Source of the DNA: a virus
Reading direction: 5' to 3' (one strand)
Virus record (IMG/VR): IMGVR_UViG_3300032163_000001
Span: 110,249 to 174,248 of that record
DNA: 64,000 bases
The notes under the pieces are model-generated. The model searched no databases and was not told the DNA's origin. It worked only from the letters and a program-made list of their open reading frames with translations. Positions within the stretch are counted from its first letter, which is position 1, and the number at the start of each line of letters is the position of its first letter. Below are positions 7,909-62,374 of the stretch, piece after piece. Made by a program: the position numbers and the translations under genes.

Positions 7909-7953
7909 GAAGGAGGGTGAACTCAAAATTTCTTTTAGAAGGAGGGGTGTGAC

Positions 7954-8202: not shown

Positions 8203-8263
8203 CATAACCTTCCTTATTTTCTCTCTTCATTCTAAAAAAAAAGAGAAAGGAGGTGATATATAA

Positions 8264-8515: not shown

Positions 8516-8516
8516 T

Positions 8517-30773: not shown

Positions 30774-33245
30774 ATGGCGGCTCCACAAGAAAGTAATGTA
30801 GTATTATCACCAAATGAGTTTGTATTTGTTCAAGACTCTACGAAAGGAGAGATTAAGTGTTTAGCAGGACCTTACAAAACAGGTCTTACTGGTGAAGATT
30901 TTCCAGTCATATTTAATAAAGATTCAAAAAAGTTTGAAAAAGTAGATCTTTACAAAGCTACTCAACTTTTTGCTATTGCACCTGAAGGTTGGTATATTAT
31001 TTTGAAAAATCCAGCTGGACAATACCCTGATCCAGGAAAAGCAAATATCCCTATTCCACTTAATATGGGCAGAAAAATTAACATTCCAGGTCCAGTTAGT
31101 TTTGCTTTATGGCCTGGTCAAATGAAAAAAGTAGTCCAGGGCCATCACCTTCGATCAAATCAATATTTATTAGTTCGAGTTTATGATGAAGGTGAAGCTA
31201 TAAAGAACTTAGATAAAGCAATTATCAAACGAGTAGAAACTGAACCACCAGAGAAAAAAGAAGCTCCTCAAGAATCTAAAGTAGAGAAAAAAGAAGAAAT
31301 CAAAAAATCTGAGTTTGCTGTATCAGATTTAACAATGGGAAAACTTCTAATTATTAAAGGAACAGATGTAGCATTCTATATTCCTCCAACTGGTATTGAA
31401 GTAGTAGCTCCAGAAGATAATAAATATGTTAGAGAAGCAGTAACTTTAGAAACTTTAGAATACTGTATTCTTCTAAATGAAAATGGCAATAAAAGATATA
31501 TCAAAGGTCCAGCTGTAGTTTTTCCAGAACCAACTGAAACTTTCATTCAATCTAATGGAAAGAAAGTATTTAAAGCATATGAACTCAACGAAATATCTGG
31601 TCTTTATCTTAAAGTCATCTCAGCATATAGTGAAGATGATAAAGAATATGAAGTAGGACAAGAATTATTTATCACTGGTGCAGAACAAGCGATTTATTAT
31701 CCAAGACCAGAACATGCGATTATAAAATATGGAGATCAAGAAATCCATCATGGAATTGCTATCCCAGCTGGTGAAGGTAGGTACGTCCTCGATAGACTTA
31801 GTGGGTCAATTTTATTAAAGAAAGGTCCATGTGTTTTTTTACCAGATCCGAGACACCAAGTAATTGTTAGAAGAATTTTAGATTTAAGTACAGTTGATCT
31901 ATGGTATCCGGGGAACCTAGAAGCTAGAGAGTATAACTCTTTTTTATTGAACATGCTGCAAGAAACTAGGGGTTTTGCGCCAAAAGAGGGAGTTAATTAT
32001 ATAGACCAACAAATGTATTCTTCTAGAGTAGCACCTCAAGCAAAAGGTTTTGTGGCTGACGAAGTCAAACGAAAAAATGTATACACACCCCCTCGAACAA
32101 TCACTTTAGATACTAAATATGAAGGAGTTCCAATCATCAAAGTTTGGACCGGTTATGCTGTATTAATAACTAGTAAAACTGGAAAAAGAGAAATGGCTAT
32201 TGGACCAACTCCGGTTTTACTACAATATGATGAAACTTTAGAATTTATGGAACTTTCTACAGGAACTCCAAAAAGTGATACTAACTTACATAAGACTGTT
32301 TACCTTAGAGTGTTAAACAATAAAGTTTCAGACATAGTCAAAGCTGAAACTAAAGATCTTTGTCCCATTAGTATACAAGTTTCATATCGAGTGAATTTTG
32401 AAGGAGAAACTAGTAATTGGTTTAACGTTGAAAACTATGTAAAGTTCTTAACAGATCATTTAAGGTCTTTAATTAGAAGTAATATTAAACAATATGGAAT
32501 TGAAGAGTTCTACTCAAATTCAATTTCTATTGTTAGAGATTGTGTTTTGGGAAAGTCAGATGGAGAAAAGAGACCAGGAAGAGCATTTGATGAAAATGGG
32601 ATGAGAGTTTATGAGTGTGAAGTTTTAAACGTTGAAATTAGTAATGATACTGTTAAAAGGATGTTAACTGATGCTCAAACTGTATCTGTACAAAACACAA
32701 TTAACTTAGCAAAGAGCAGAAGTAATCTATCATTTACGACAGAAAATGAAGATATCAAAAGAAAAATTGAAGGAGAAGTACATAAAAGTTTTATTAGTTC
32801 CTCAGATATAAAGATTGATTCAACAAAGAGGATACTAATAGAAAATTTAGAAAAGATTAAATCATCATATAAAGAAACGATTGAAAATATTAACTACTCT
32901 TTAGAAAAAGTCAAATTAACGGAAGGTGTTACAACTCAAGAGGTTTCCAATCTTAAAATTCGATCCGACTATGATTATAAAGTCAATCAACAAGACCAAA
33001 TCTTAGGACTAGAAAAACTTAAAGCAGAAAACGAAGCTGAAATTAAGAAAGTTGAAGCCGTCTCAAAAGATTTAATTGCAGCTCTGCAGTCTTTTGGTGA
33101 TCAGATTGCTCTAGAGAAAGTTACTCAATCACTAGCTCCTCTGGCTTTACTTGGTGGAGGTTCAATAGCTGACGTAGTTAATAAACTACTAAAAGGAACA
33201 GTTCTTGAAGGGATTTTGGCTAAAAAAGTTAAAGAAGTAACGTAG
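30774..33245 (+). CDS. Major vault protein (MVP) homologue: N-terminal MVP-repeat domains, SPFH/band-7 shoulder, C-terminal cap-helix-like coiled coil
   Basis: Repeats such as LYLKVISAYSEDDKEYEVGQELFITGAEQAIYYPRPEHAII resemble human MVP [41 protein letters not shown]. Shoulder MAIGPTPVLLQYDETLEFMELSTGTPK ... ISIQVSYRVNFE ... FNVENYVKFLTDHLRSLIRSNIKQYGIEEFYSNSISIVRDCVLG resembles MVP [27 protein letters not shown] ... LQLQLAYNWHFE ... [44 protein letters not shown]. C-terminal ALQSFGDQIALEKVTQSLAPLALLGGGS resembles MVP [28 protein letters not shown]. Length 823 aa versus 893 for human MVP. Confidence 0.7.
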   Translation: MAAPQESNVVLSPNEFVFVQDSTKGEIKCLAGPYKTGLTGEDFPVIFNKDSKKFEKVDLYKATQLFAIAPEGWYIILKNPAGQYPDPGKANIPIPLNMGRKINIPGPVSFALWPGQMKKVVQGHHLRSNQYLLVRVYDEGEAIKNLDKAIIKRVETEPPEKKEAPQESKVEKKEEIKKSEFAVSDLTMGKLLIIKGTDVAFYIPPTGIEVVAPEDNKYVREAVTLETLEYCILLNENGNKRYIKGPAVVFPEPTETFIQSNGKKVFKAYELNEISGLYLKVISAYSEDDKEYEVGQELFITGAEQAIYYPRPEHAIIKYGDQEIHHGIAIPAGEGRYVLDRLSGSILLKKGPCVFLPDPRHQVIVRRILDLSTVDLWYPGNLEAREYNSFLLNMLQETRGFAPKEGVNYIDQQMYSSRVAPQAKGFVADEVKRKNVYTPPRTITLDTKYEGVPIIKVWTGYAVLITSKTGKREMAIGPTPVLLQYDETLEFMELSTGTPKSDTNLHKTVYLRVLNNKVSDIVKAETKDLCPISIQVSYRVNFEGETSNWFNVENYVKFLTDHLRSLIRSNIKQYGIEEFYSNSISIVRDCVLGKSDGEKRPGRAFDENGMRVYECEVLNVEISNDTVKRMLTDAQTVSVQNTINLAKSRSNLSFTTENEDIKRKIEGEVHKSFISSSDIKIDSTKRILIENLEKIKSSYKETIENINYSLEKVKLTEGVTTQEVSNLKIRSDYDYKVNQQDQILGLEKLKAENEAEIKKVEAVSKDLIAALQSFGDQIALEKVTQSLAPLALLGGGSIADVVNKLLKGTVLEGILAKKVKEVT

Positions 33246-33306: not shown

Positions 33307-34074
33307 ATGAATTTAAAAACTTTTTTAGATAGATTCTTTAATAGGTTTAGATTATTTCAGTCTGAAAAACTTTCTCTAAAAACTCTTGTATCAGAATACA
33401 AAAAAGTCGTACATTACATTTTTCTGATACAAGAGAAAGATAAAAAAAGGATTTCAGAACATTTACATGAATGTTTATCAAATTTATCTACTCTCAGATT
33501 TTATACAGATATACTGGAGGGAAACAAATTAAGCAAAGAAACAGATTTTGCAGTAATAGTTGAACTAATAGATTCAACTATCAAACGTATAAACACTCTC
33601 ATTAGTATTACCAGACCAATTGTTATAGATCAGCTCGATATTGGTAGATCAATACATTTTCTTTGTAGGCATTTCGAGAGAAAAGGAAATGTTCAAATTA
33701 AGATGATATCACAAAATAATAAAGAAATTTTCATTACTGACAAAGTTCTAAAGATATCTATATATAGAGTTGTACAAACGTGTATATGGAAATCTATCAA
33801 AGTTTTTGGAGCTACTGTTATTTATGTTAGTTTAGAAAATTCACTCAAAATAACTGTAGAAGATAATGGAAAAGAAGAACCAGTAAATAAAGAATTTTAC
33901 AAAACTTTAAATTTATGGATAAACGAGTTAGTAAAACTTACACGAGGGTCAATCAAAGAAGAACGAACCAAACAAGGTACAAATAAAACAATTATCATAT
34001 GGAATATGGAGAAAATAAAAAGTGAGATAAACCAGTTAATAAAAAAGGAGGAAAACTATAATGAAAACAAATAA
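33307..34074 (+). CDS. Soluble HisKA_3-type histidine-kinase core (DesK/LiaS-like H-box + GHKL ATPase), no sensor/TM domain (start set at ATG 33307 after GGGAGGGGGG)
   Basis: H-box KKRISEHLHECLSNLSTLRF resembles DesK RERIARDLHDTLGQKLSLI. G1 box ITVEDNGKEE (D-x-G). 256 aa. Confidence 0.5.
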   Translation: MNLKTFLDRFFNRFRLFQSEKLSLKTLVSEYKKVVHYIFLIQEKDKKRISEHLHECLSNLSTLRFYTDILEGNKLSKETDFAVIVELIDSTIKRINTLISITRPIVIDQLDIGRSIHFLCRHFERKGNVQIKMISQNNKEIFITDKVLKISIYRVVQTCIWKSIKVFGATVIYVSLENSLKITVEDNGKEEPVNKEFYKTLNLWINELVKLTRGSIKEERTKQGTNKTIIIWNMEKIKSEINQLIKKEENYNENK

Positions 34075-34345
34075 GAAAAAAATGATGGCGATGTTGACAG
34101 AATTTAGTGTATCAACACCTCAGGCAAAGAATGTATTCCTAGTTGGAGATTTTAATCAATGGAATCCAAGTACACATCCATTGAAACAGAAGAAGGGAGG
34201 AATATGGAAGATTACTCTTGCTTTAGATCCAGGGAAACATGAGTATCGATTTCTCATAGATGGACAATGGATAAACGATGTACATTGTTCTTCTTTTGTT
34301 GAGAATCCATTTGGTACAAAGAACTGTTTAAGAATTGTGAGATAG
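34061..34345 (+). CDS. Stand-alone CBM48 / AMPK-beta glycogen-binding-domain protein
   Basis: NVFLVGDFNQWNPSTHPL...GGIWKITLALDPGKHEYRFLIDGQWINDV matches the CBM48 signature (V.L.GSFN.W......L......W.....L..G.H.YKF.VDG.W..D). SD AAGGAGGA. Confidence 0.65.
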   Translation: MKTNKKKMMAMLTEFSVSTPQAKNVFLVGDFNQWNPSTHPLKQKKGGIWKITLALDPGKHEYRFLIDGQWINDVHCSSFVENPFGTKNCLRIVR

Positions 34346-34481: not shown

Positions 34482-35186
34482 TTAAATTAGTTTTCTATGT
34501 TCTAAATAAGTTTTTACATCTTCAACAGTAGGATCAATTTTGTTTATTTCTATTATTATCCAACCATCTCTCTCAATCTTATGGTTCCTATGAATATCAG
34601 GCATACCATGGTTATGCCAAAACGTTTTTGGGAATTCTAAATCTATTTTCTTAAGAGGAATGCAAATATCTGTAACAATTCGATAGTCTAGAGACCCGGA
34701 TAGAGAAACTTTATCAATCATATAATTGTTAATAACAGTATCAGTTGGAAATAGATTTCTTAGAAATTCTAGAATTTGAAGCTTTCTTGGATGAATCTTT
34801 GGAGCATGTGGAAAGAGATTATTAGTTTTTTGAATTTTAACCTGTTTTACAACTACATTAGCTTTCTTTTCGAGCTTGGTAAGTTCAGGTTTTTTCTCTA
34901 CAACTTCTCTTTCTATATCTAAAACGTCAGTTTGTGTTAAAGTTAGTTTAGTTAAATCAATATCTTCTACAATTGGATTTTCCTCTGTTTTAGAAAATAA
35001 GTTACCCTTCAAATATCTTTGTCTAGCTTTGTATTCTACACTAGTTATCGGACAATCTGGAAATCTCTCTCTATAAATTGATAAAGAAATTCCATGTTTA
35101 TTTTTCAAGTGCGATGGAGTTATAATAGGGAATTCTTCACCACATATCTGACAAACAACTTTTCCCTTATCTGTCACTTTTTCCAT
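34482..35186 (-). CDS. Ros/MucR-type zinc-finger protein with C-terminal nuclease-like domain (homing-endonuclease-like)
   Basis: VCQICGEEFPIITPSHLKNKHGISLSIYRERF resembles the MucR C.ECGK.FK.LKRHL..HH..SPE.YREKW motif. C-terminal DGWIIIEINKIDPTVEDVKTYLEHRKLI resembles DUF559/Vsr-like HE tails. Confidence 0.45.
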   Translation of the reverse strand: MEKVTDKGKVVCQICGEEFPIITPSHLKNKHGISLSIYRERFPDCPITSVEYKARQRYLKGNLFSKTEENPIVEDIDLTKLTLTQTDVLDIEREVVEKKPELTKLEKKANVVVKQVKIQKTNNLFPHAPKIHPRKLQILEFLRNLFPTDTVINNYMIDKVSLSGSLDYRIVTDICIPLKKIDLEFPKTFWHNHGMPDIHRNHKIERDGWIIIEINKIDPTVEDVKTYLEHRKLI

Positions 35187-35242: not shown

Positions 35243-35623
35243 ATGTATCATTATTTAATTACAGTAGGTATTCAAGAAATAGATTCGTCTCTTGCAGGAA
35301 AAATGTATTTAGATAACTTTTTATCATATGATGACAAAGCAAGAAAAAATGTGGAGTCTTGTCAAAAGTTGTCACAAGATCATCTGTTTAAAACCACTCC
35401 AGAACAGTCTGCTGAAATATTTGACTGTAGTAGATTATTAAATGACTTACAAATGATACTAATAAGATGTAAAGTTCAAAACACAATTTTACTACACTAT
35501 ATATCTGAAGATCAATTAGATAAATGCTTTTTCGAAGAATGGGTAATGGTGAACTCTTTAGAAGAACTTAAAAAAGCTCAAGTGGGGAAAGGAGAGGTTC
35601 TCAAAGATGGACATAATTTATAG
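35243..35623 (+). CDS. Hypothetical protein
   Basis: SD AAAGGAGAAGAAATG. 126 aa. Confidence 0.4.
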   Translation: MYHYLITVGIQEIDSSLAGKMYLDNFLSYDDKARKNVESCQKLSQDHLFKTTPEQSAEIFDCSRLLNDLQMILIRCKVQNTILLHYISEDQLDKCFFEEWVMVNSLEELKKAQVGKGEVLKDGHNL

Positions 35624-36017
35624 TTGGCAAGAGTTCGAAAACGACTGTTACGATATCCTAAGACTTTTGTCTAAACTAAAAGAAGTCAAGAACATTTTTG
35701 GAATTCCCAGAGGAGGATTGATACTAGCTGTTAGACTTTCACATTTACTATCAAAACCAGATCACAAAGTACCGTTAATTTTGAGAGATGAAGAAATAGA
35801 ACCAGAAACTCTTATAGTCGACGACATTTCAGACTCAGGAAAAACTTTACTAGAATACTGCTCTTACTACCAAACCAGTTTATCTATTACATTATGGATA
35901 TGTAACGAAACAAAATTTACACCATCGTTCTTTTTAAATACAAAAAACAAGGGTGATTGGATAGTATTTCCATGGGAACAAAACTACCGGGGAACTGCTG
36001 TTGATCCTGAATTGTAA
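35607..36017 (+). CDS. gpt: Xanthine-guanine phosphoribosyltransferase-like (Gpt, type I PRTase)
   Basis: FGIPRGGLILA and PRPP-binding LIVDDISDSGKTL. C-terminal DWIVFPWEQ resembles E. coli Gpt TWIEQPWD. 136 aa. Confidence 0.65.
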   Translation: MDIIYSWQEFENDCYDILRLLSKLKEVKNIFGIPRGGLILAVRLSHLLSKPDHKVPLILRDEEIEPETLIVDDISDSGKTLLEYCSYYQTSLSITLWICNETKFTPSFFLNTKNKGDWIVFPWEQNYRGTAVDPEL

Positions 36018-37823: not shown

Positions 37824-38360
37824 ATGCATTTAGTTGGGATCATCGGTAAAAAAGGAAGTGGGAAATCCGAGTGTTCAAAAATTTTGTGTGAAAAATATAG
37901 TTTTCAGAGGACTTCGTTCGCTGATAAACTTAAGCAAACTGTATCAGATCTTTTCGATATTCCCTTAAACTTTCTTTATGATCCCAAACTTAAAGAAACG
38001 TATGATAATAGATGGGGAAAAACTTACAGAGAAATTATGCAACTTTTTGGTACCGAAGTTGGTAGATGTATTTATAATGACATATGGGTGTATCACGTTG
38101 AGAAACACTTATTACAAAATCCTGATCTTAGTTTTGTTATAGATGACGTTAGATTTAAAAATGAAGCTGTTTTAATCAAAAAACTCAATGGTTTATTAAT
38201 AAAAGTAGTGCGACCATCTAATGACATTCAAAAAGATTTTCATAAATCAGAAACAGAACAAGATGAAATTGAAGTAGATATAACTATCTTAAATAACTCA
38301 TCTAAAGAAGATCTATATAATACAGTCAATCAAGTTTACCTTGAATTTTGTAACAAATAA
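37824..38360 (+). CDS. Deoxynucleoside monophosphate kinase (T4 gp1-like)
   Basis: P-loop GIIGKKGSGKS. FADKLK, REIMQLFGTEVG and LIKVVRP align with T4 gene 1 (VIHVVRP). Confidence 0.65.
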   Translation: MHLVGIIGKKGSGKSECSKILCEKYSFQRTSFADKLKQTVSDLFDIPLNFLYDPKLKETYDNRWGKTYREIMQLFGTEVGRCIYNDIWVYHVEKHLLQNPDLSFVIDDVRFKNEAVLIKKLNGLLIKVVRPSNDIQKDFHKSETEQDEIEVDITILNNSSKEDLYNTVNQVYLEFCNK

Positions 38361-38428
38361 AATTATATCAGATATCTATAGCACTAAAACTATTGTAAAG
38401 ATAATACGTTGAAAGGGAGGTGAAAACA

Positions 38429-39352
38429 TTGAGCTTAAATGAATTAATAGGTAGAAAATCAGTTGGTCGTCCTTGTGTCCCTACTTTAAATTTCATAGTA
38501 GGAAATAGACAATGTAACATGGAGTGTAAATATTGTATTTCTAAAATGACGAAGGCTGAGTTATCTAAACGAGGAGAGGTTTCTCCTTTATGGTATAGAA
38601 ATAGACGTTTAGCTTTTAGCGTAGCAAAGAAGTTTAGTACTGATACAGTGTTAATCACAGGAAAAGGAGAACCAACTATCTGGAAAACAGAATTACTAGA
38701 TACTATAGCAAGAGCTAGTGACGAAGGATTTATTACAGAACTTCAAACAAATGGAGTTTTATTAGATGAATCTTATTGTATTCATCTTGCTGGAGCAGGT
38801 CTTAATACTATAGCTATTAGTAGAGTCACAGTTGATACAGCTACGAATAATTGGATATGTGATCCTATACATTTTAGTACTCCAAATTTACACCAGTTAA
38901 TTCCAATGATCCAAAGACTTGAAATAAAGATGAACATTCGAATTACTTTTGTAGCTATGAAAGGTTACAATGACTCAGTTGAAAAGATAGAGAAAACATG
39001 TCTTTGGGCTTTATCGAATGGAGTTAAACAAGTTACTATTAGAAGAATGGGGATGCCAAATCTTAGTTCAATTGAAAGTTTAGATAGTGCATTCGAGATC
39101 GAAAAATTTGTAACAGATAACCTTGTTCCAGATGAAGAATGGAAAAAGATCATAGATTTCTTTATGAAAGAATACACTATTTTAAGAGTTTTTGACTGGG
39201 GCTCAATCAGCTGGTCTATTAATGGAGTCCAGTGTTTAATAGCTGATTGTTTAACAGTGCCAGGATTAGATGGCACAATCAGGTATCTTATATATTATCC
39301 TGATGGTCATTTAAGATATAGTTGGGAACACGATTCTACAATAATTTTTTGA
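38429..39352 (+). CDS. Radical SAM enzyme (CxxxCxxC; viperin/MoaA-like core), function unknown; start uncertain (TTG 38429 or GTG 38420)
   Basis: RQCNMECKYC, GKGEP glycine motif, LQTNGVLLDE and LNTIAISRVTVD resemble viperin IVSNGSLIRE / LDILAISCDSFD and MoaA. Confidence 0.6.
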   Translation: MSLNELIGRKSVGRPCVPTLNFIVGNRQCNMECKYCISKMTKAELSKRGEVSPLWYRNRRLAFSVAKKFSTDTVLITGKGEPTIWKTELLDTIARASDEGFITELQTNGVLLDESYCIHLAGAGLNTIAISRVTVDTATNNWICDPIHFSTPNLHQLIPMIQRLEIKMNIRITFVAMKGYNDSVEKIEKTCLWALSNGVKQVTIRRMGMPNLSSIESLDSAFEIEKFVTDNLVPDEEWKKIIDFFMKEYTILRVFDWGSISWSINGVQCLIADCLTVPGLDGTIRYLIYYPDGHLRYSWEHDSTIIF

Positions 39353-39386: not shown

Positions 39387-39460
39387 TCAGGAGTCGTCTA
39401 ATTTAGGCAGGACATTTGACTTTGAATCAAAAAATAAAGGTTCGATTCCTTTCTCCTGAA
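39387..39460 (+). tRNA. tRNA-Gln (anticodon UUG)
   Basis: Acceptor TCAGGAG/CTCCTGA perfect 7 bp. D-arm GTCT..GGAC. Anticodon arm TTTGA-CTTTGAA-TCAAA (U33, anticodon TTG, A37). T-arm AAAGG-TTCGATT-CCTTT. No encoded CCA. Confidence 0.75.
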
Positions 39461-40602: not shown

Positions 40603-40890
40603 ATGGCTAAATTTATAGACTTTGTTGATAAGAAATTTATATGTGATAACTGCAAAAAAGTTATTCAAGGAAAAGAAATTGTCTTAGAATTAGCTCCAAC
40701 TAATTTTGATATATTAACTCCTCTTCACCCACTCATTTTTATTGATAAAGATGGGATTATCAAAGGAGGTTCTAAATTTGCAGACGGGTCTATTGGGGAC
40801 CAAATATTGAACTGTCCAAAATGTAATTACCCTCATTTATATGGATTTACACCATATGAAGAGAAAACATTAAAAGAGATGGGTCGGTAA
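40603..40890 (+). CDS. Small zinc-ribbon protein
   Basis: CDNCKK...CPKCNYPH. The stop codon overlaps the tRNA 5' end. Confidence 0.4.
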   Translation: MAKFIDFVDKKFICDNCKKVIQGKEIVLELAPTNFDILTPLHPLIFIDKDGIIKGGSKFADGSIGDQILNCPKCNYPHLYGFTPYEEKTLKEMGR

Positions 40891-40977: not shown

Positions 40978-42141
40978 ATGATAATTAATTCGATTCTTGA
41001 CAACGATTTATACAAGTTCACAATGCAACAAGCCGTTTGCCAACTGTATCCATCTGCTCACGCTAGATACGAATTTATTAACAGAGGCAAAACGATATTT
41101 CCACCTGACTTTGATCGTAAATTAGAAAGTGAAGTTAGATATTTTAGTGAATTTAAACTTGGTAAATATGAAAGGCATTTTCTTAATGATATCTATTTTC
41201 TTTATCCTCCCTATATAGACTTCCTTGATGGTTATAAATATAATCCAAGCGAAGTTCAAATAGAACAAAAGCATGGGGATTTAAAGTTAATAGTTGAAGG
41301 TCCTTGGTATAGGGCTATTTTATGGGAAGTACCTCTACTTGCTTTAATCAGTGAACTGTACTTTAAAGAAATAGGGGATATTGGTCCTTTCGCAGGTTAT
41401 GAATCAATAGCTAAAGGAAAAGCAGCTAGATTAAGAGATATTGGTGCTAAATTTGCTGACTTCGGAACTAGGAGAAGGTATTCCTATGAAGTTCAAAACC
41501 ATGTCATTGGGGCTTTAGAAAGTGGAGGAGGTATCTTCTTTAATGGAACTAGTAACGTTTATTTTGCTATGCAACATCAAGTTAGGGCAATAGGCACTCA
41601 GGCGCATGAGTGGATGATGTTTCATGCGTCACAATATGGTTTTCATCTAGCTAACCAGATTTCGATGGAAAAATGGGTGGACACTTATCAAGGAGACTTA
41701 GGTATTGCTTTAGCTGATACTTATACTTCAGATGCTTTTTTCAAGTCGTTTAATACAAAGTTCTCTAAACTTTATGATGGCGTGAGACAAGACTCTGGAG
41801 ATCCAATAGAATTTGCAGATAAAGCAATTAAACATTATGAAAAATTAAGAATAGACCCAACAACTAAAACCATTGTTTTTAGTGATGGGTTAGATGTAAA
41901 CAAAGTAGAAGAAATTGAGAAACACTGTAGAGGAAAGATTAGGACTTCCTACGGGATAGGGACTAACCTAACGAATGACGTAGGAGTCAAACCTTTAAAT
42001 ATTGTTATAAAAATGACTGCGTGTAAATCTACTCTTAGTGATCCTTGGACTAATACATGCAAATTGTCTGACGTTCCCACTAAATATACTGGAGATCCTG
42101 AAATGATAAAACTATGTAAACAAGTTTTGGAGATACAATAG
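40978..42141 (+). CDS. pncB: Nicotinate phosphoribosyltransferase (PncB)
   Basis: DNDLYKFTMQQAV, GPWYRAILWEVPLLALISE, FGTRRRYSYEVQ, IGTQAHEWMMFH, VRQDSGDP and KPLNIVIKM align motif-for-motif with E. coli PncB. SD AGAGGAGG. Confidence 0.8.
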   Translation: MIINSILDNDLYKFTMQQAVCQLYPSAHARYEFINRGKTIFPPDFDRKLESEVRYFSEFKLGKYERHFLNDIYFLYPPYIDFLDGYKYNPSEVQIEQKHGDLKLIVEGPWYRAILWEVPLLALISELYFKEIGDIGPFAGYESIAKGKAARLRDIGAKFADFGTRRRYSYEVQNHVIGALESGGGIFFNGTSNVYFAMQHQVRAIGTQAHEWMMFHASQYGFHLANQISMEKWVDTYQGDLGIALADTYTSDAFFKSFNTKFSKLYDGVRQDSGDPIEFADKAIKHYEKLRIDPTTKTIVFSDGLDVNKVEEIEKHCRGKIRTSYGIGTNLTNDVGVKPLNIVIKMTACKSTLSDPWTNTCKLSDVPTKYTGDPEMIKLCKQVLEIQ

Positions 42142-42154: not shown

Positions 42155-43039
42155 ATGCAAAACCTAGTAGAAAAATTTCGAAAAGCTGGATTAAGTACTG
42201 TGATCTTAAAAGAACCTATACGTCGTCAAGGAAGAGGAATGGAAGATATTGTTCAAATAGACATCCAAAGAAACGTTAAAGGTTTTAACCGACGCGAAAG
42301 ATTTAGACTTTACCCTGGTGATAAAAGTAATATAATTCAAGTTCGAAACATTGATCCTAATCTCAAACAACTCGTACTTTTCGTTAAAGAGCCAGTTCGA
42401 GAGTTTGATAACGTTACTCAATTAAACAGTTTTACCACATTTAAAAGAGTCAAAGAAGAAGCAGAGAAAAGTCTCCATAAACCTGTTAGAATTTTTAAAG
42501 TTGGAAACGAAGCACATGTAGTTATGAAAACTTCAGAAGGTGTTCGTTATTTCCTCTGTGGAGTAGATGAGCGACAACTATTTATTGCTCAGTTAACTGG
42601 ACCAGCAACTACTGTAGAAGAGGCAAGAAAACTTCTTGGAAAAACTGTTCAATTTGCAGATGGAAAAAGACGAGGAAGTTCAGTAGATAGACAGGGAGAA
42701 TGGTTCTTCTTAGAAACGAAACAAAGTACTAGAGACGAAATTGAAAGAGCAATTAGAGGAACTAGAACTGCTATTCAGCGGAAAGTCGCTATTGGTAGAT
42801 TTTTGGGTCGTCCTAGCACTAATCTCCATATAGTCGATGAACTAGTTATTCTTCCTTTTCAGACAGTCACTAACCGTGATCCAAATAGGTTACAGAGACG
42901 TCAAGTATTTGTTCGAGGATCTATTCGACATAGAGATCACAAAACTGTTAAATTTTCTAATTGGAGAGAGGTAATTGCTAACAACGAATCACAATCTACT
43001 GCTCGAGGAAGTGCTTCTGGAGTTTTTTGGGTAGACTAA
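42155..43039 (+). CDS. Hypothetical protein co-transcribed with pncB
   Basis: SD AGGAGGAAAAACAAAATG. 294 aa, Arg-rich. No NMNAT (H/T)xGH or Nudix box seen. Confidence 0.45.
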   Translation: MQNLVEKFRKAGLSTVILKEPIRRQGRGMEDIVQIDIQRNVKGFNRRERFRLYPGDKSNIIQVRNIDPNLKQLVLFVKEPVREFDNVTQLNSFTTFKRVKEEAEKSLHKPVRIFKVGNEAHVVMKTSEGVRYFLCGVDERQLFIAQLTGPATTVEEARKLLGKTVQFADGKRRGSSVDRQGEWFFLETKQSTRDEIERAIRGTRTAIQRKVAIGRFLGRPSTNLHIVDELVILPFQTVTNRDPNRLQRRQVFVRGSIRHRDHKTVKFSNWREVIANNESQSTARGSASGVFWVD

Positions 43040-55298: not shown

Positions 55299-56687
55299 TC
55301 ATATTTTTAAACCAGGGGTAAAAAGTAAAGTTTCACCCGTCAAATCAGTAAATTCATCTTTAGATAGAAACTTTTTTATTATATAATAGCAAAATTCTTC
55401 ATCTAAATTAGTTAACATTTCAATAGACTTTAAGATACTATTAGATTTTGATGTTTGTTTCTTAGTTACTTTTCCGTCATTCATATCAGAAACGATACTA
55501 GATGCTTTTCTATTAAATTCTTCAAGATTTCCACTTTCGTAAATTGCATATATACTAAGCGCTTGTTCCCTAAGAAAATCTTGTATCTTAGAATACATAT
55601 AGAGGGTTTGTAACATTGAATATATTTTCACTCTTTCAAAGAAAGTTCCAGTTTCTTCAGAATATACTTGTTCCATTTTAATATCTTTAAAGCCAAATTT
55701 ACAAAGTTCTTGTAGTGATTCTCTATATACATCTATCACTTTCTTTTCTCCCCAGTATCTCATTTCTAGAGAAGAAGATCTTATATTTAATCTTTTTACT
55801 TTACCATCTTCTAAAATTGGCAGAAGTCTCCCTATCATTAATCCTTTAAAAACCCCTGAAGAATCATACGTTATTTCTAGATCTATTTCGTGAACTTTTT
55901 GGACGTGTAATTTAAACAGTTCATAGAAAAAAATATCTCTAAAACCAGCTCCACCAAGAATATGAAAATATAGTTTCTTTCTATCAAACTTTTTAGCTCT
56001 ATTTATAAGAGGAATTAGAGGTAGAACATAAATGATACATGGAATACCAGTGTCTGATGCCATATTAGCTACAATGCCACCAGTAGCATGATACTTAAAT
56101 TTATTAAATAAATCATTCTCATCTAAGATTTTAGTATAAATTTCCCACAACTTGGGTGTTCTAAAATGGTGAATATAAATTATTTTTTCTCTAGCATCAT
56201 CTGGTAAATTAGATGCTTCAATATACGACTTTTCATTCATCTTATAAACATCATCAAAAGATTCAAAAATCTTGCATCCTGGTCCTGGAGGGATATCTAA
56301 GATAAAAGCTCGATCATAAACATCTTTATGAACTTGTACAAATTCATAATAAATTTTATGTAGAAGCTCAATTTCTCTTTTATCTAACAAACCAATTGAT
56401 GCTTGGAAACCTCCTGAGTCTGTCATAAAAATACAGTTATCAAGAAATCCATAACCCCTACACTTTTTAAAAAGAGCAGCTTCTTGTTCGGCATATTTTG
56501 AATGATTTTTTCTCCCTCCAAAACCACTTCCAAATGAATGTAAAAACTTATCACATGTTGAAAGAAAGAAATCATTCAAAGTTTTTTTAGTGAAATTATT
56601 ATCAAACTCCTTACTCTTAGTAATAAAGGAATCCATAAAGTCAGCTAAGGTTTCAAACCCTGCACATGTAAAGCCACAATTAGTCAC
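55299..56687 (-). CDS. dpdA: tRNA-guanine transglycosylase-family protein, DpdA-like DNA 7-deazaguanine transglycosylase
   Basis: IFMTDSGGFQASI matches the TGT catalytic ILTDSGGFQVFSL motif. ATGGIVANM resembles YAVGGLAVGE. 462 aa. Adjacent to queE. Confidence 0.65.
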   Translation of the reverse strand: MTNCGFTCAGFETLADFMDSFITKSKEFDNNFTKKTLNDFFLSTCDKFLHSFGSGFGGRKNHSKYAEQEAALFKKCRGYGFLDNCIFMTDSGGFQASIGLLDKREIELLHKIYYEFVQVHKDVYDRAFILDIPPGPGCKIFESFDDVYKMNEKSYIEASNLPDDAREKIIYIHHFRTPKLWEIYTKILDENDLFNKFKYHATGGIVANMASDTGIPCIIYVLPLIPLINRAKKFDRKKLYFHILGGAGFRDIFFYELFKLHVQKVHEIDLEITYDSSGVFKGLMIGRLLPILEDGKVKRLNIRSSSLEMRYWGEKKVIDVYRESLQELCKFGFKDIKMEQVYSEETGTFFERVKIYSMLQTLYMYSKIQDFLREQALSIYAIYESGNLEEFNRKASSIVSDMNDGKVTKKQTSKSNSILKSIEMLTNLDEEFCYYIIKKFLSKDEFTDLTGETLLFTPGLKI

Positions 56688-56978: not shown

Positions 56979-57653
56979 CTATGTGAAATTATAGACAATA
57001 TGCATTCTATCCGAAATGCAAAAGTTATACTTTTCTGCCATGTCTAAAACAACTTCAGAATTACCAATTAGTTCATCTCTAGTCTTTCCTTGTGGCATAA
57101 GATAAACTCTAAGGTTTGGAAAATTTAGCACCTTCAAGAAATCTAAATATTCATAAATCAACTCTTTATCTTCACATACTAATTTAATATAAACTCGTTC
57201 ATCATTCATTATTTCTTTACTTAGTTTCATATAGAAACCAAGATCTTCGTTTGTAAATATTTTAGGAGACAATATAAATCGAACCTTTTTCACTGGATCT
57301 ACTTTCTTAATTAAACCAACTAAATTACAACCATTAGTCTCTACATTATAAATTGGAGCATTTACACCATTTATTAAAGATATTGTCTGATTTAAATTTA
57401 AGTTAAAAGTTGGTTCTCCACCTGTAATCAATAACCCACAATTATGTTCATCTACAATATTCTGGATATCTCTTAGAGCATAATCTGCTTCATTAGAAAT
57501 CCTCATCTTAACTAAAGTATCACAAAATGGACATGGTGTTCCTGCAGATACTCTTGAGCACCTCTTAAATCTAAGAATTATCATTGGTTGTCCTACATCT
57601 TTTCCTTCTCCTTGAAAACTTAGAAAATTTTCTATAAGTCTAACCTTTGACAT
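56979..57653 (-). CDS. queE: 7-carboxy-7-deazaguanine synthase (QueE, radical SAM)
   Basis: N-terminal ENFLSFQGEGKDVGQPMIILRFKRC matches QueE EMFQTLQGEGYFTGVPAIFIRLQGC. Cys cluster C-x8-C-x2-C then CDT. Confidence 0.7.
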   Translation of the reverse strand: MSKVRLIENFLSFQGEGKDVGQPMIILRFKRCSRVSAGTPCPFCDTLVKMRISNEADYALRDIQNIVDEHNCGLLITGGEPTFNLNLNQTISLINGVNAPIYNVETNGCNLVGLIKKVDPVKKVRFILSPKIFTNEDLGFYMKLSKEIMNDERVYIKLVCEDKELIYEYLDFLKVLNFPNLRVYLMPQGKTRDELIGNSEVVLDMAEKYNFCISDRMHIVYNFT

Positions 57654-57666: not shown

Positions 57667-60600
57667 TCAAAACTTTAAGATGTTTTCATTTCTTCCTATT
57701 AACGGTTCTAGCATCAGTTTATATCTGTCAACCCATGAAAACTTAATCATTTCTTTTATATCTATATTGTAATAATTTGGTAGAGAAAGTTCTTCATCCG
57801 GTAAACATATAACATCTAACTTCTTATTTTTAGATAAAAATTCTTTACTGTATCGTTCTAAAACTTCTTTAGGAGCTATTTGATCATTTATTCCATTTAT
57901 CTTAAATAAATATCCTTTCGAACCATGAGCAAATATTTGATATTCTAAAACATTCCAGTTCAAAAAACCAATTACGTTTTGCGGAATCCTTTTATAATCA
58001 TCTAAATCTTTAGTAAAAGATGCTGGTCTAGCTACACTTTTTTCTCCTCCAGTAACTCTCTGAAAAAATTCTGTTTCTTTTGAATCAATAAATTTTTTAG
58101 TTGCAAACATAGAAAACTTTTCCGACTTCAAAATTAAATCTAAAAGTTCTTTTAGACATTCTTTTGTATAACTTGGATAATCGGATCTTTTAGTATCTAA
58201 ACCCATACTTTTAATTTCATCTGTTTCTGTCCCTTCTTCAGAGATAATGTATATAGAATAATGTTTTTTACTTAAAAATAATCCTCTCTTAATAACTAGT
58301 TCATTCTTTAAATCTAATCTATTATATTGTAAACTAACATTATGCTTTTCAACAAGTTTCTCTACAACATCTTTATTTAAATAAGATCGAATTTGATCAC
58401 ATAAAACTTTTACTTCTGCAACTTTCTCATTTTCATTCTTTCCTTTAATTAAAGAATCTAGACTTAAAAATACAGAATCAGTATCACCAGTAATAACATG
58501 TTCAATCTTTCTATCTAATTCTCCAAACATTTCTTTTTTATTTAATCTAGTTTGTTCAATGTCTTTTTTGACTCTTAGAGATTCAACAAATACGTCAGAA
58601 GAAACAATAGTTGATTTTAAAAATTCTTGACCACTTAAAGTAATACTTATTGCGCAATCTATATTATAAAATCTATAAGCTGCATTACCAAGAACTCCAT
58701 ACATAGCATTCGCTAAAACTTTAAAAACTAACTGTCTAACTTCATACAATTCTTCTTCAGATTTATTCTTTGCTTGTTTTGCTTCGAACATTTTCTTCTT
58801 AACTACTTTTCTAGATTGTAAAATATATTCTAATATTTCACTATAAAATGATAATTCGGTTCTATGAGGTTTAAAGAAACATCCATTTATTGTATATGTT
58901 AAATTAGATTCTATAATTTTCTCTATCAATTGTTCTCTAGTAATTTCCATTTCTTGAAGAGTTAAGTCAGGATCTAATATAACAGAAAGTTTCTCTGGTA
59001 ATTTTTCTGGTTGATAAATAAGATCATACCCAAGTGTATGGTCCTTAAGCTTCATAACAATTGTATTAAAACCAACATTAAATGTTTGAATTATACTAGG
59101 ATATAGTGATGTAAAATCAAAATCAACTATCCATTCATGTAAACCAACCTTAGGTTCTTTTACATAAGCTCCTGCAAAAGCTTCATCTTTTAACTGAACA
59201 TTTGCATTTCTAGAAGCATACCCTTTGGATTTTAACCAAGAAGATACTAAAGAATCTAATTGACCCATTGCATTTAGCGCTGATTGAAACGTACACTTAC
59301 ATATCTTTTTTAACTCACTAGCTAAAGAAATATGTTTAACTTTATCTTCTAATTTAACTGTTAGTAAAACGTCTCTTCTATTGTATTCAATCGCTTTATT
59401 TACATCATCTCTAAACATCTGGGAGAAGTTTGATCCACTATCTAATTTACTTTCTTTTAGTTCTATCTGTGCTATCGTTCCAAGTCTATAGTTTTCTTTC
59501 TTTGTAGGTGTAAAAGTCCTGTATAAAGTTAACTGGTCAAGAATTATAAAACCATAAATATCTGCGTAACCCTTATCTCCATCAATATTTACTTCTCCAA
59601 GTTTAGATAGAAGATCTTTGTTTATACCTAATTTTTCACATCGATTAGTTAAATATGGAATATCAAACCATGAAAGATTCCAACCAGTTATAACGTCTGG
59701 ATCTATTACTTTAATATCCTTTATGAATGTAGTGAGCAAATCTTTTTCACTTTTAAACACAAGAATTTCATCTGATGCTTTTATAGCTTGAAGAGAAGTA
59801 TCTTTTAAAAGAATTCTATTATCCATAACATACGTTACAATTTTATCTTTATAACCATAACTAATCATACAAACTGGATCTTTTGCTTCAGCAATATTAG
59901 GGAACTCTTTCTTAATACTATACACTTCTATATCTAAAAACATTATATTAAGATCCAAATTCTCTTCTTCTGGTTTTTGGATATAATAGTCATTAGAATG
60001 TTTAGTTACTAATTTGAAATCTCCATCATAAGTAACTTCATGGTCAAGTCCATACTTTTCTCTGTATAAAACTTTCATCTGAAATAGTTCATCATACTTC
60101 ATTACTTTTTTAGCTAAAACACCATCAGGTACTTTATAACAATAATAATCATCATTCTCCCTATGAAAAACTTTCTTACTATCTTTATCTTTAAAGATAT
60201 AAAGAACTTGGTTACTTCTATGTAAATATTGAATATCTAAAAGTTTGTAGTCTTTAGTGTAAAACTTATCTTCTATTTTATAAAAATGAATTCCCTTCTT
60301 TTCTAACTTTTCTACTTTCATAGAAGAAGATACAATTCCAGGAATACCCAAATATGCAGATACATATCTCATATCTTGATCAAACTTTTCTTCAAAACTT
60401 CTATTCCTAGAAACATATGAAGGATGGACCGTAAAAAATACGTCATGTTCTTTCCATCGAAACATCTTTCCTCTGAAGCTTGTTATATGAGCATCTTTAT
60501 CAAAAATCTCAAATGCTTTTCCTGCAGTCCCTCCCATTAGAACAATTAGCTTGGCATTACTACACTGTTCTATGATCTTAAAGCAATTTTCTTTACAAAG

Positions 60601-60909
60601 ATCTATAGTTCGATCACTTGGATTTATAGTTGTTTTTCTTTCTTTATCTAATGTCTGACAAAGAACTACGTTCGTCAAAAGATACTTAACACTGTTAAGT
60701 TTATACATACTAAAATATTTTCGAAATAATTGTCCAGTTTTTCCTATAAGTGGAACTTCTTTTTCAACCTCATCTTTCCCTGGATTCTCTGCAACAAAAA
60801 TTACTTTTATTTGATCAAAAGATTCTGCATTTGTTTCAAGTATACAAGACTTCTCTCCAAATAATTCACATGAAGAACAATCAGCAAAACTATTTTTAAT
60901 ACTAAACAT
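57667..60909 (-). CDS. Family B DNA polymerase with N-terminal family-4 uracil-DNA-glycosylase-like domain
   Basis: ITGDTDSVF (Pol C motif YGDTDS). DIEVYS exo I. N-terminal roughly 170 aa carry CSSCELFGEKSC, AENPGKDE (UDG4 GE.PG..ED) and VHPSYV (HPS). Confidence 0.8.
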   Translation of the reverse strand: MFSIKNSFADCSSCELFGEKSCILETNAESFDQIKVIFVAENPGKDEVEKEVPLIGKTGQLFRKYFSMYKLNSVKYLLTNVVLCQTLDKERKTTINPSDRTIDLCKENCFKIIEQCSNAKLIVLMGGTAGKAFEIFDKDAHITSFRGKMFRWKEHDVFFTVHPSYVSRNRSFEEKFDQDMRYVSAYLGIPGIVSSSMKVEKLEKKGIHFYKIEDKFYTKDYKLLDIQYLHRSNQVLYIFKDKDSKKVFHRENDDYYCYKVPDGVLAKKVMKYDELFQMKVLYREKYGLDHEVTYDGDFKLVTKHSNDYYIQKPEEENLDLNIMFLDIEVYSIKKEFPNIAEAKDPVCMISYGYKDKIVTYVMDNRILLKDTSLQAIKASDEILVFKSEKDLLTTFIKDIKVIDPDVITGWNLSWFDIPYLTNRCEKLGINKDLLSKLGEVNIDGDKGYADIYGFIILDQLTLYRTFTPTKKENYRLGTIAQIELKESKLDSGSNFSQMFRDDVNKAIEYNRRDVLLTVKLEDKVKHISLASELKKICKCTFQSALNAMGQLDSLVSSWLKSKGYASRNANVQLKDEAFAGAYVKEPKVGLHEWIVDFDFTSLYPSIIQTFNVGFNTIVMKLKDHTLGYDLIYQPEKLPEKLSVILDPDLTLQEMEITREQLIEKIIESNLTYTINGCFFKPHRTELSFYSEILEYILQSRKVVKKKMFEAKQAKNKSEEELYEVRQLVFKVLANAMYGVLGNAAYRFYNIDCAISITLSGQEFLKSTIVSSDVFVESLRVKKDIEQTRLNKKEMFGELDRKIEHVITGDTDSVFLSLDSLIKGKNENEKVAEVKVLCDQIRSYLNKDVVEKLVEKHNVSLQYNRLDLKNELVIKRGLFLSKKHYSIYIISEEGTETDEIKSMGLDTKRSDYPSYTKECLKELLDLILKSEKFSMFATKKFIDSKETEFFQRVTGGEKSVARPASFTKDLDDYKRIPQNVIGFLNWNVLEYQIFAHGSKGYLFKINGINDQIAPKEVLERYSKEFLSKNKKLDVICLPDEELSLPNYYNIDIKEMIKFSWVDRYKLMLEPLIGRNENILKF

Positions 60910-60912
60910 TAT

Positions 60913-61440
60913 TTATCCCCTAATAATTGAGAAATGTTCAGATATGAAACTTTTGATTTTTATTTGAATTCCTTCTTCTTTCTTCTTCTTTAAGTTCTTA
61001 ATTGCCTTAGCTTTTTCTGGTTTCAAAAGTCCAAGAGAGTCATAGATAGATTTTTTAGAATCTTCATCTTCTCTATCTATAATACTAGACAACAAATTTA
61101 TATCACAACCTTTTAATGTAGGAAATTTCTTCCTCAAAGCTTGAAATAAATCACTATTTTTTTTCGAACTAAAAAATGACAAATTATTTCTTCTAACTCT
61201 AAAGTCTATAATACACTTTTTGATAAACTTAAATAGATCTTCTTTCTCTAGATAAAACACTCCAACATTATTAAAATACTTATCTAAATAATGGTTAAGT
61301 TGTCCATACAACAAAAACATTGAAATAATTCTATTATTACTTATTGGAGAATTGTACTTTAAGAAAACTTCTTTTTGTGGAATTTCTGAAGTTCTACTCC
61401 CGTCAAACAACCATTGGTTAAAGACTTCGTATTCATTCAT
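60913..61440 (-). CDS. Hypothetical protein
   Basis: 175 aa. Confidence 0.4.
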   Translation of the reverse strand: MNEYEVFNQWLFDGSRTSEIPQKEVFLKYNSPISNNRIISMFLLYGQLNHYLDKYFNNVGVFYLEKEDLFKFIKKCIIDFRVRRNNLSFFSSKKNSDLFQALRKKFPTLKGCDINLLSSIIDREDEDSKKSIYDSLGLLKPEKAKAIKNLKKKKEEGIQIKIKSFISEHFSIIRG

Positions 61441-62374
61441 TACTCTCTTCTTTCATAATCCTTATTATATTGTTATAGAAATTATTAATAAGATCCTGAT
61501 TTAATAAGTTAGGAACTGTATCAAGAAAATCAATCCTTAATTCTGATCCTGCAGGGTATAAAAAAGGTTTTGGTAGTAACTCAGGATATGAGAACTTATC
61601 TGGAGCAATAACAGATGTGTTATTCATAACTGCTTCTAGAGCTTGATATCCAAATGTATCTTCATTAGTAGTGATTAATAAAACTTTTCCTTGCGATAGA
61701 AATTTATAATATTCTTTCCATGTTGAACATTCTTTTCTTACTATTTTAGTTTTCAAACTCTTCTCAATAAAACGTTCTAACCTTTTATTGACTTTCTGCC
61801 TACACGGTCTAGAAACCGAAATTATATCATATATCTTCTTTTCTTTAAACGTTTTAAAAGGGGGTTTTGGAAGACCTACAACTTCAGTATTTTTCCATCC
61901 TAGTTTTTCTTGGTGATATTTAGTTGCTACAAACACTTTTTTAAACAATTTTGAATGTCCAGTTTCTACTAACCATTTACTTTTTCTAACTGGAGCAAAA
62001 TAATCAAACGCATTTTTAGATGTTGCGTGACAGAACGCAAAACAATTTTTCATTGGTTTATGATACAAGACATTCGAAAACAAACCAGGAAAAGAAATAT
62101 CAGCTAAAAAGAGAATATCATCATTTTCTAATCTTATATTTAGAAACTGGTGAATTTGTTGATATTCAAAAGAAATAGATTGTTCAACTGGAGAAAATAA
62201 CCTTTTATCCCTATTATCTTCATAATCAGTAAGAGACTCTCCTAAAACAACAACTTCATCAAAATGTTTTATAAACTCTTTAAAAAATTCTCTATGCCAC
62301 CATTCTTGATATCTCATTTTAGCTGGAAACTGAGGAACAAAAATTATTCTGGACATATGATAAAGTTTCTCCAT
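61433..62374 (-). CDS. GT-B fold glycosyltransferase (GT4-like C-terminal E.FG...LEA motif)
   Basis: NEDTFGYQALEAVMNNTSVIAP. 313 aa. Confidence 0.55.
   Translation of the reverse strand: MEKLYHMSRIIFVPQFPAKMRYQEWWHREFFKEFIKHFDEVVVLGESLTDYEDNRDKRLFSPVEQSISFEYQQIHQFLNIRLENDDILFLADISFPGLFSNVLYHKPMKNCFAFCHATSKNAFDYFAPVRKSKWLVETGHSKLFKKVFVATKYHQEKLGWKNTEVVGLPKPPFKTFKEKKIYDIISVSRPCRQKVNKRLERFIEKSLKTKIVRKECSTWKEYYKFLSQGKVLLITTNEDTFGYQALEAVMNNTSVIAPDKFSYPELLPKPFLYPAGSELRIDFLDTVPNLLNQDLINNFYNNIIRIMKEESNE

Follow-up and report, generated by a model that had tools for sequence, protein, structure and literature searches.

A short-form purine phosphoribosyltransferase linked to 7-deazaguanine DNA modification genes in phages, with a possible role in guanine recycling

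What would a phage do with an enzyme that attaches purine bases to phosphoribosyl groups? The question is raised by a 64,000-nucleotide stretch of viral DNA (positions 110,249 to 174,248 of IMG/VR record IMGVR_UViG_3300032163_000001; the window, by which we mean the whole stretch analysed), which carries a gene for a small protein resembling purine phosphoribosyltransferases (PRTs). An original prediction, made from the letters alone, had proposed a Gpt-like type I PRT, possibly tied to the exchange of guanine for 7-deazaguanine bases in phage DNA. Our analysis places the protein in a large family of short purine PRTs whose phage members mostly lie close to genes of the deazaguanine pathway, in places fused to one of them, and leads us to propose that it may return the guanine released by base exchange to the GTP on which that pathway draws. 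The gene and its upstream signal are as follows:

35588..35597, plus strand: Shine-Dalgarno-like AAAGGAGAGG, 9 nt 5' of the PRT ATG, read from the sequence
35607..36017, plus strand: mini purine (6-oxopurine-type) PRT, a predicted enzyme of 136 aa, open reading frame (ORF) from ATG to TAA

The start of this ORF overlaps the end of the preceding one (35243..35623) by 17 nt. On another metagenomic contig (L181), a relative that is 79% identical has the same upstream neighbours, in the shared order CBM48 protein, minus-strand 241-aa gene, 127-aa ORF and PRT, and the comparison of the two PRTs gives a dN/dS of 0.21. An intact ORF preceded by a Shine-Dalgarno-like site, the homologies described below, the conserved neighbours and the low dN/dS together argue that the gene is real, translated and under purifying selection, and the 136-aa ORF originally called at 35607-36017 stands exactly as drawn. 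A scan for promoters and terminators around the gene gave no difference from shuffled sequence. Because a megablast search with window positions 25000-49000 against 50,697 phage records returned no match, the phage has no close cultured relative in that set.

Several lines of evidence assign the protein to the 6-oxopurine PRTs. It passes the Pfam model PF00156 marginally (26.5 bits against a gathering cut-off of 26.3), matches PHROG 8995 ‘phosphoribosyl transferase’ at 8.7e-12, and has as its top NCBIfam model the xanthine PRT NF006613 (6.3e-10), to which it scores 38.8 bits against an equivalog cut-off of 138 that is not reached; the same model matches all 51 family members, with a best E value of 2.2e-18. 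Among solved structures, the closest by sequence are the Pyrococcus horikoshii purine PRT 1vdm (8.7e-10) and the hypoxanthine-guanine-xanthine PRT (HGXPRT) GpT-2 of Sulfolobus solfataricus (2e-5), and a set of 5.8 billion proteins contains 55 homologues of up to 97% identity. The AlphaFold2 model is confident (pLDDT 91.4, pTM 0.84) and has the alpha/beta PRT core with its hood. Compared with the PDB by Foldseek, it finds nothing but purine PRTs of the HGXPRT or xanthine-guanine PRT (XGPRT) type among its best 50 matches (probability 1.00, TM-score 0.70-0.79, E ~1e-8), the source species being P. horikoshii, S. solfataricus, E. coli, Y. pestis and H. pylori.

The signatures expected of such enzymes can be read along the chain as W7, G32-I-P-R35-G36-G37-L, L69-I-V-D72-D73-I-S-D76-S-G78-K-T80 and W118-I-V-F-P122-W-E124. 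In an alignment with 50-55 homologues, G37, D72, D76 and G78 are invariant, and R35, G36, L38, D73, I74, T80, P106, W118, P122 and E124 nearly so. R35-G36-G37 would form the pyrophosphate (PPi) loop, D72-D73 the ribose/Mg pair and S77-G78-K79-T80, within D-S-G-K-T, the 5'-phosphate loop, and the C-terminal hood, with W118 as the base-stacking Trp and P122-W123-E124, aligns with W134-I-E-Q-P-W-D140 of E. coli Gpt. D76 occupies the position of the Asp that contacts purine N7, the N7 acid/base position of 6-oxopurine PRTs such as the hypoxanthine-guanine PRTs (HGPRTs) and XGPRTs. The segment corresponding to flexible loop II is deleted, as seen in alignments with Gpt (residues ~58-78) and the archaeal chain (residues ~51-83), so that the spacing from the RGG to the xDD motif is 34 residues in the window PRT and 26-31 in most of the family, compared with 48 in E. 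coli Gpt.

Fold, motifs and top profile matches all point to 6-oxopurine PRTs and uphold the assignment to Gpt-like type I PRTs. Where the original prediction had named a Gpt subfamily, only part of the claim survives the profile searches: PF00156 is passed, whereas the Gpt equivalog model NF006613 fails and loop II is absent. From its sequence, the window PRT is a loop-II-less relative of Gpt and not a Gpt orthologue.

The missing loop, a segment important for HGPRT catalysis, could indicate that the protein has become a non-catalytic regulator or sensor with a PRT fold, as in PyrR or ComF, which would respond, for example, to guanine, 5-phosphoribosyl 1-pyrophosphate (PRPP) or GTP and control the GTP-consuming enzyme FolE. 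The barely sufficient Pfam score agrees with such a role, and the fusion to FolE described below could mean allosteric control. However, thousands of sequences retain the PRPP-, PPi-, Mg/ribose- and base-stacking residues, each of the 50 top structural matches is to a catalytic purine PRT, and Patescibacteria and DPANN carry the same short form in housekeeping contexts. No PyrR or ComF profile matches the window PRT; among the 51 family members, PyrR models touch two or three at E ~0.003 and ComF models none. The degenerate PyrR/ComF-like regulator that had been put forward as the finding that would overturn the prediction is thus unsupported by profiles, catalytic residues and Foldseek matches alike, and we consider it very improbable. 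Taken with the structural model, the sequence makes it highly probable that the window PRT is a catalytic purine PRT.

The short form is widespread. Searched with a profile, 1.84 billion cluster representatives yielded 6344 sequences at E<=1e-10 and, at the stricter E<=1e-30, 263, most of them 110-140 aa long, and more than 362 relatives were confirmed in GTDB genomes. The best 80 of these, which form our survey of cellular contexts, come from Patescibacteria (Saccharibacteria and Parcubacteria-type phyla), DPANN and other archaea, many Brachyspira including cultured strains, metagenome-assembled genomes of Clostridia, and Sulfurimonas, whose sequences are of the long form with the loop kept. 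The cellular short form is a chromosomal gene with an RGG-to-xDD spacing of 26-36 residues (48 in E. coli Gpt), and it sits in housekeeping contexts such as rpsO-PRT-NYN-pnp in an uncultured bacterium, pheS-pheT-PRT-uvrC in Brachyspira and a locus beside transaldolase and transketolase in an archaeon; deazaguanine genes lie nearby in only ~6 of the 80 loci. In a crude neighbour-joining tree, viral and cellular members interleave, the clade of the window PRT mixing viral sequences linked to Que genes with sequences from Patescibacteria, and the catalytic columns are identical between viral and cellular mini-PRTs.

Patescibacteria and DPANN rely on purine salvage. Since the loop-less form is a housekeeping gene in these salvage-dependent lineages, the simplest reading is that it is an active purine PRT; and since it is a housekeeping gene in Brachyspira as well, the deletion of loop II is not decay. 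We reject a decayed Gpt on the housekeeping contexts, the structural matches to purine PRTs and the dN/dS of 0.21. The sequences define a large, unannotated clade of purine PRTs without loop II, related to archaeal HGXPRT and bacterial Gpt, and one that challenges the view of the flexible loop as indispensable in 6-oxopurine PRTs.

Viral and cellular members differ in two further respects. A C-terminal tail, D-S-x-x-[IV]-Q-D-Y, is conserved in Que-linked viral PRTs (loci L016-L095) and missing in most cellular members (L096-L175). At the columns of Gpt F113 and K115, viral Que-linked PRTs favour His and Lys and cellular ones Phe and His; the second column is that of the O6-binding lysine (Gpt K115, human HGPRT K165), and it holds Lys in 73% of Que-linked viral members and mostly His in cellular ones. 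The viral tail and the His/Lys preferences may be determinants of specificity or interaction.

We next turn to the genomic company that the family keeps in viruses. At least 472 viral contigs in IMG/VR encode a relative of the PRT, and neighbourhoods were counted in the 10-kb flanks of the best-scoring 80, a biased sample in which some loci are cut at contig ends, with hidden Markov models (HMMs) for the Que, DpdA and FolE families built and iterated from phage seeds. In 65 of the 80 loci, one or more deazaguanine genes lie within 10 kb of the PRT: FolE in 62, QueE in 60, QueD in 54, DpdA in 49, QueC in 40 and QueF in 8. Clustering the PRTs at 70% identity leaves the picture in place (44 of 51 clusters deazaguanine-linked, 41 of 51 FolE-linked). 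FolE is encoded on the PRT strand in 62/62 loci and is the immediate neighbour in 45 of them, where it precedes the PRT in 31 and follows it in 14. Linkage follows the form of the enzyme, as 64 of 71 viral loci with the short form are Que-linked, against 0 of 9 in the clade with long spacing; the remaining linked locus has a 48-residue spacing and falls outside the long-form clade.

Isolated phages agree with the metagenomic contigs. A tblastn search of 50,697 isolate phage genomes found 26 records with the PRT, including the Cellulophaga phages phiST, phi13:1 and phi19:2. FolE is present in at least 25 of the 26, compared with 407 of the 50,697 isolate phage records overall (0.8%), a base rate that we used because a control neighbourhood scan with the dNMP (deoxynucleoside monophosphate) kinase of the window yielded two loci only and was useless as such. 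About 17 of the 26 matches (Bhz54 and ~16 others) fall inside genes annotated as GTP cyclohydrolase I, in phages of Stenotrophomonas, Pseudomonas, Vibrio and Sphingomonas. In Stenotrophomonas phage Bhz54, the one record in which the fusion itself was examined, the 297-aa ‘FolE’ combines a PRT domain (~aa 22-120), its catalytic motifs preserved, with FolE, within a cluster ordered QueE-QueC-QueD-[PRT-FolE]-DpdA; in the ~16 other records the fusion is read from the annotated feature under the match. There were no FolE fusions among the 150 top-scoring cluster representatives.

Other arrangements vary around the same set of genes. Flavobacterium phage immuto_2-6A has QueD, QueE, two small ORFs, PRT, FolE, NTP pyrophosphohydrolase, DpdA, a PurN-like formyltransferase, Tmk and QueF; a metagenomic phage contig has QueD-QueE-QueC-x-x-PRT-x-FolE-QueF-DpdA; and Brevundimonas phage StAshley has ribonucleotide reductase (RNR)-dNMP kinase-FolE-PRT. 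Of the DpdAs that neighbour PRTs, 32 of 50 are of the immuto DpdA3-like type, and several DpdA subtypes co-occur with the PRT.

These associations bear on the possibility that the PRT is a generic salvage enzyme, which would turn the hypoxanthine and guanine set free by breakdown of host RNA and DNA into nucleotides for phage replication, together with the dNMP kinase and a nicotinate PRT homologue, and would have no specific link to modification in this phage. Cellular members of the family are plain salvage enzymes, deazaguanine genes are missing from the surroundings of 15 of the 80 viral loci, the nine loci of the long-form clade are never Que-linked, and in the window itself the PRT lies among unrelated early genes (SLT lysozyme-like, dNMP kinase, tRNAs, nicotinate PRT homologue), far from the Que- and DpdA-like genes. 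Yet generic salvage fits poorly with the contrast between short and long forms and with the enrichment of FolE among PRT-bearing isolates, it leaves the recurrent FolE fusion unexplained, and DpdA-like, QueE-like and QueC genes are in fact present in the window phage. We regard it as unlikely.

The suggested tie to the guanine/7-deazaguanine system is strongly supported, with 65 of 80 loci linked, FolE usually adjacent, a fusion in Bhz54 and FolE in nearly every PRT-bearing isolate, and the co-occurrence of the PRT with dpdA in phages, which the original prediction had named as a check, is seen in the 49 loci with DpdA within 10 kb. A functional connection between the PRT family of phages and the deazaguanine pathway is, in our view, likely.

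The long-form viral clade is of interest in its own right (L035, L043, L054, L061, L066, L067, L071, L073, L076). Its members keep loop II, have a spacing of 43-46 residues and are never found beside deazaguanine genes. Five of the nine loci hold, in addition to the long-form PRT, another ORF of the PRT family, 190-330 aa long. The clade looks like a distinct nucleotide-salvage module.

Does the phage of the window possess a deazaguanine system of its own? We read the contig beyond the window (ena:ERZ27247924:k141_4250956, 111,530 bp), covering 81.6 kb in all (record positions 8524-90170), and found three relevant genes:

55299..56687, minus strand: divergent DpdA/TGT-like transglycosylase, 462 aa, with FMTDSGGFQ, FHILGG and TYDSSG motifs; in-house DpdA HMM, E=3.7e-4
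56979..57653, minus strand: QueE-like radical SAM protein (7-carboxy-7-deazaguanine synthase family), 224 aa; PHROG 2076, 5e-25; in-house QueE HMM, 1e-56; tblastn with immuto QueE, 3e-15
L011 6794-7519, minus strand in window orientation, 1.6-2.3 kb past the window end: QueC, 241 aa, PF06508

The first of these was recognized by remote homology. The 462-aa protein has no match in Pfam, including PF01702, or PHROG, none among PDB sequences by phmmer or hmmsearch, and none by tblastn in the 50,697 isolate phages. Aligned by hhalign, however, its family and the DpdA family match with 94.9% probability (E=4.7e-8) across the catalytic region, and the six top Foldseek matches of its AlphaFold2 model (pLDDT 89) are all to the Zymomonas tRNA-guanine transglycosylase (TGT), at E=2e-5 to 3e-4 and a TM-score of only 0.4-0.5. 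The motifs FMTD89SGGFQ, FH241ILGG and TYD274SS are invariant in 34 homologues. The family counts at least 593 homologues, ~55% identical to one another, and an HMM built from its alignment found no other DpdA in the fetched loci. It appears, from sequence comparison and modelling, to be an undescribed DpdA/TGT-like subfamily that belongs to the core genes of an uncultured T4-like lineage, and we presume it to be the enzyme that releases guanine from DNA. The premise that this phage has a DpdA thus holds, by remote homology only.

The gene belongs to a conserved block, UDG-PolB, QueE-like, GroES, (ThyA, HD), DpdA-like, DnaB and portal, that recurs in related uncultured T4-like phages. UDG-PolB is a uracil-DNA glycosylase domain fused N-terminally to a family-B DNA polymerase (1080 aa, 57667..60909, minus strand), and the same fusion occurs in contigs L179 and L180. 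Searching the window by tblastn with the DpdA, FolE, QueC, QueD and QueF of immuto_2-6A and Bhz54 returned only the QueE-like gene and the PRT, and neither Pfam nor PHROG identified a TGT, FolE, QueC or QueD among 50 ORFs of the window. An ORF at 61433..62374, considered as a DpdA, was rejected, as it has a weak glycosyltransferase PHROG match only and no DpdA signal.

How, then, might a purine PRT serve DNA modification? A DpdA-type transglycosylase would excise one guanine for each deazaguanine inserted, and FolE uses one GTP for each deazaguanine base made. The PRT could connect the two, converting free guanine and PRPP to GMP and PPi, after which host or phage kinases would raise GMP to GTP for consumption by FolE. 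Such a closed guanine loop would roughly halve the net guanine cost of modification, and the removal of free guanine might also pull base exchange towards completion. TGT works by a ping-pong mechanism in which free guanine competes with the incoming base; by analogy, scavenging guanine would drive the exchange forward. The quantities involved may be considerable: at the 33% G+C of the window, a genome copy of 111.5 kb contains ~36,800 guanines, and therefore high replacement over a burst would, as an order-of-magnitude estimate, free guanine comparable to the guanine-nucleotide pool of the cell and need as much GTP again.

A different reaction is known from secondary metabolism. TubE (194 aa, PF00156), whose gene lies next to those of FolE, QueD and QueE homologues, is a proven transferase of 7-carboxy-7-deazaguanine (CDG) to PRPP (PMC6112128), and ToyH is its proposed preQ0 counterpart (bioRxiv 10.64898/2026.04.15.718813). 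The phage PRT might likewise join a 7-deazaguanine base (CDG, preQ0, preQ1 or 7-deazaguanine) to PRPP and so make a 7-deaza-GMP analogue, either for a nucleotide-level, pre-replicative route through kinase, RNR, dNTP and polymerase, beside or instead of DpdA, or as a nucleotide cofactor or intermediate. The gene clustering around the phage PRT is of the same kind (65 of 80 loci), and the PRT-bearing isolates include phages with complete replacement, namely phiST, phi13:1 and phi19:2 (100% dDG) and immuto_2-6A (100% fdPreQ1); of the 50 adjacent DpdAs, 32 are of the immuto DpdA3-like type. NTP pyrophosphohydrolase, thymidylate or dNMP kinase and RNR genes neighbour the PRT in immuto, StAshley, phiST and the window; the H/K substitutions and C-terminal tail of the viral Que-linked PRTs are missing in most cellular members; and heterologous expression of phiST DpdL with DpdA gave no dDG, its authors suggesting that further enzymes may be needed.

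Against transfer to a deazapurine, DpdA enzymes take the free base, and with DpdA in 49 of 80 loci its consumption by a PRT would compete with them. The N7-contact residue D76 is invariant, yet a 7-deaza base has no N7. The close cellular relatives are housekeeping genes, mostly without Que genes nearby (present in ~6 of 80), and in size and fold the protein is Gpt- or HGXPRT-like, with 136 aa against the 194 of TubE. The fusions, moreover, sit in small siphophage clusters ordered QueE-QueC-QueD-[PRT-FolE]-DpdA; a queE-queC-queD-folE-dpdA order has been described for the Queuovirinae, whose member iggy is ~16.5% modified, the likeness to the fusion phages being one of gene order. We hold a TubE-like activity to be doubtful.

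Guanine is the substrate that we favour over a deazapurine, with reasonable though not strong confidence. The PRT adjoins or is fused to FolE, which consumes GTP, and is not placed next to QueC, QueE or DpdA; it co-occurs with DpdAs of several subtypes, all users of the free base; and both the invariance of D76 and the housekeeping role of its cellular orthologues speak for an ordinary purine.

A number of observations weigh against guanine recycling as the role of the window PRT. Loop II shields the transition state in HGPRTs, and the window PRT is without it; in the O6-lysine column (Gpt Lys115, HGPRT Lys165) it has Cys99, with Lys103 four residues on. The gene adjoins no Que gene, the QueE-like gene being 21 kb and the DpdA-like gene 19 kb away. 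FolE and QueD were not found in the 81.6 kb examined of the 111.5-kb contig; because positions 1-8523 and 90171-111530 lie outside that stretch, their absence from the whole phage is not established. Two further kinase steps are needed from GMP and are not encoded next to the PRT. Adjacency to FolE fits a supplier of the FolE substrate and a consumer of the pathway product alike, and the prevalence of immuto DpdA3-like enzymes among the neighbouring DpdAs, a type linked to complete replacement, fits a nucleotide-level route equally. Weighing these points, we regard the whole chain, in which an active, guanine-preferring PRT acts as an accessory of phage 7-deazaguanine DNA modification, as evenly balanced between holding and failing.

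The immediate surroundings of the PRT in the window include other genes of nucleotide and cofactor metabolism, and the dNMP kinase and tRNAs do lie a few genes away, as first noted:

37824..38360, plus strand: dNMP kinase, PF21448 at 4.5e-15 (nucleotide-metabolism context only; joint action with the PRT is not implied)
38420..39352, plus strand: second radical SAM protein, 310 aa, with weak QueE-like similarity; PF04055, 3.5e-11; PHROG 2076, 2.7e-4; in-house QueE HMM, 5e-20
39387-39460: tRNA-Gln
40881-40957: tRNA-Trp
40978..42141, plus strand: nicotinate/nicotinamide PRT-family gene (NAPRTase), PF04095 at 1.8e-62 plus an N-terminal domain
42155..43039, plus strand: 294-aa ORF of no detectable family, directly after the NAPRTase gene

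The radical SAM gene lies 2.4 kb 3' of the PRT, between the dNMP kinase and tRNA-Gln, and the NAPRTase and the 294-aa ORF possibly form an NAD-salvage or NAD-reconstitution module. On the 5' side are a small CBM48 glycogen-binding protein (94 aa, 34061..34345, plus strand) and a Ros/MucR-like zinc-finger protein (34482..35186, minus strand), both of which keep their position beside the PRT in L181. Further away, the window encodes an 823-aa protein (30774..33245, plus strand) with the Major Vault Protein shoulder domain PF11978 (3.1e-27) and the vault repeat PF17795, a vault-protein homologue that is also conserved in L181, and an OmpA-domain protein (2634..3392, plus strand).

The PRT gene has been visible in databases, labelled ‘phosphoribosyl transferase’ in a few phage records and with its domain hidden in ‘GTP cyclohydrolase I’ annotations in others. 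The central papers on phage deazaguanines (PMC6884629, PMC10516641, PMC10484667) make no mention of phosphoribosyl, PRPP or salvage, and full-text searches for literature linking a PRT with DpdA or 7-deazaguanine phage modification returned nothing relevant, the TubE/ToyH case being the only link between a PRT and deazapurines that we found (PMC6112128; bioRxiv 10.64898/2026.04.15.718813). Given those annotations and this silence, the gene seems to have gone uninterpreted, and what we describe appears to be a known enzyme class with an undescribed subfamily and an undescribed pathway role.

The pathway is currently described as FolE-QueD-QueE-QueC plus tailoring enzymes and DpdA, and neither the fate of the excised guanine nor the source of the extra GTP is considered. 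The recurrent adjacency of the PRT to FolE across hundreds of viral contigs, with fusion in some phages, points to a missing metabolic leg. This could be guanine recycling and product removal, by which a phage could afford high or complete replacement; or it could be a branch at the nucleotide level, as in tubercidin biosynthesis. A TubE-like role, if true, would explain both the 100% replacement in phiST- and immuto-type phages and the failure of DpdL with DpdA to give dDG. Either answer would help the heterologous reconstitution of deazaguanine modifications.

Set beside known systems, the window PRT is closest to the archaeal HGXPRTs (PH0095, 1vdm; S. solfataricus GpT-2, 4z1o, 4zfn and 5bqp), its best matches in both sequence and structure, with a TM-score of 0.70-0.74, E ~1e-8 and 25-30% identity. 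Both have the RGG loop, the DD-x-x-D-[ST]-G-x-T loop and the C-terminal W-I-V-F-P-W-E hood. The archaeal enzymes are 153-179 aa long, whereas the window PRT, at 136 aa, has ~18 residues fewer between its residues 51 and 65, where they have the loop II hairpin, and the phage family differs from them in a genomic context tied to FolE. Structures of Gpt/XGPRT (E. coli 1a95-1a98 and 1nul, Y. pestis, H. pylori) reach a TM-score of up to 0.79 at only 17-21% identity, with Gpt D88-D89 and D92 aligned to D72-D73 and D76. Among phage homologues, the window PRT is 43.6% identical to the immuto protein and ~32% to phiST and to the Bhz54 fusion; the mini form is common to all of these except phiST, which keeps loop II. 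These homologues lie in or beside a deazaguanine cluster, fused to FolE in Bhz54, whereas the window PRT stands alone, ~20 kb from the DpdA-like and QueE-like genes. TubE and ToyH, finally, are PF00156 enzymes encoded beside homologues of FolE, QueD and QueE, as are members of the phage family, although not the window PRT itself, whose nearest Que-type gene is 21 kb away; they belong to actinomycete secondary-metabolite clusters without DpdA or TGT (bioRxiv 10.64898/2026.04.15.718813), whereas the phage loci hold a base-exchanging DpdA in 49 of 80 cases.

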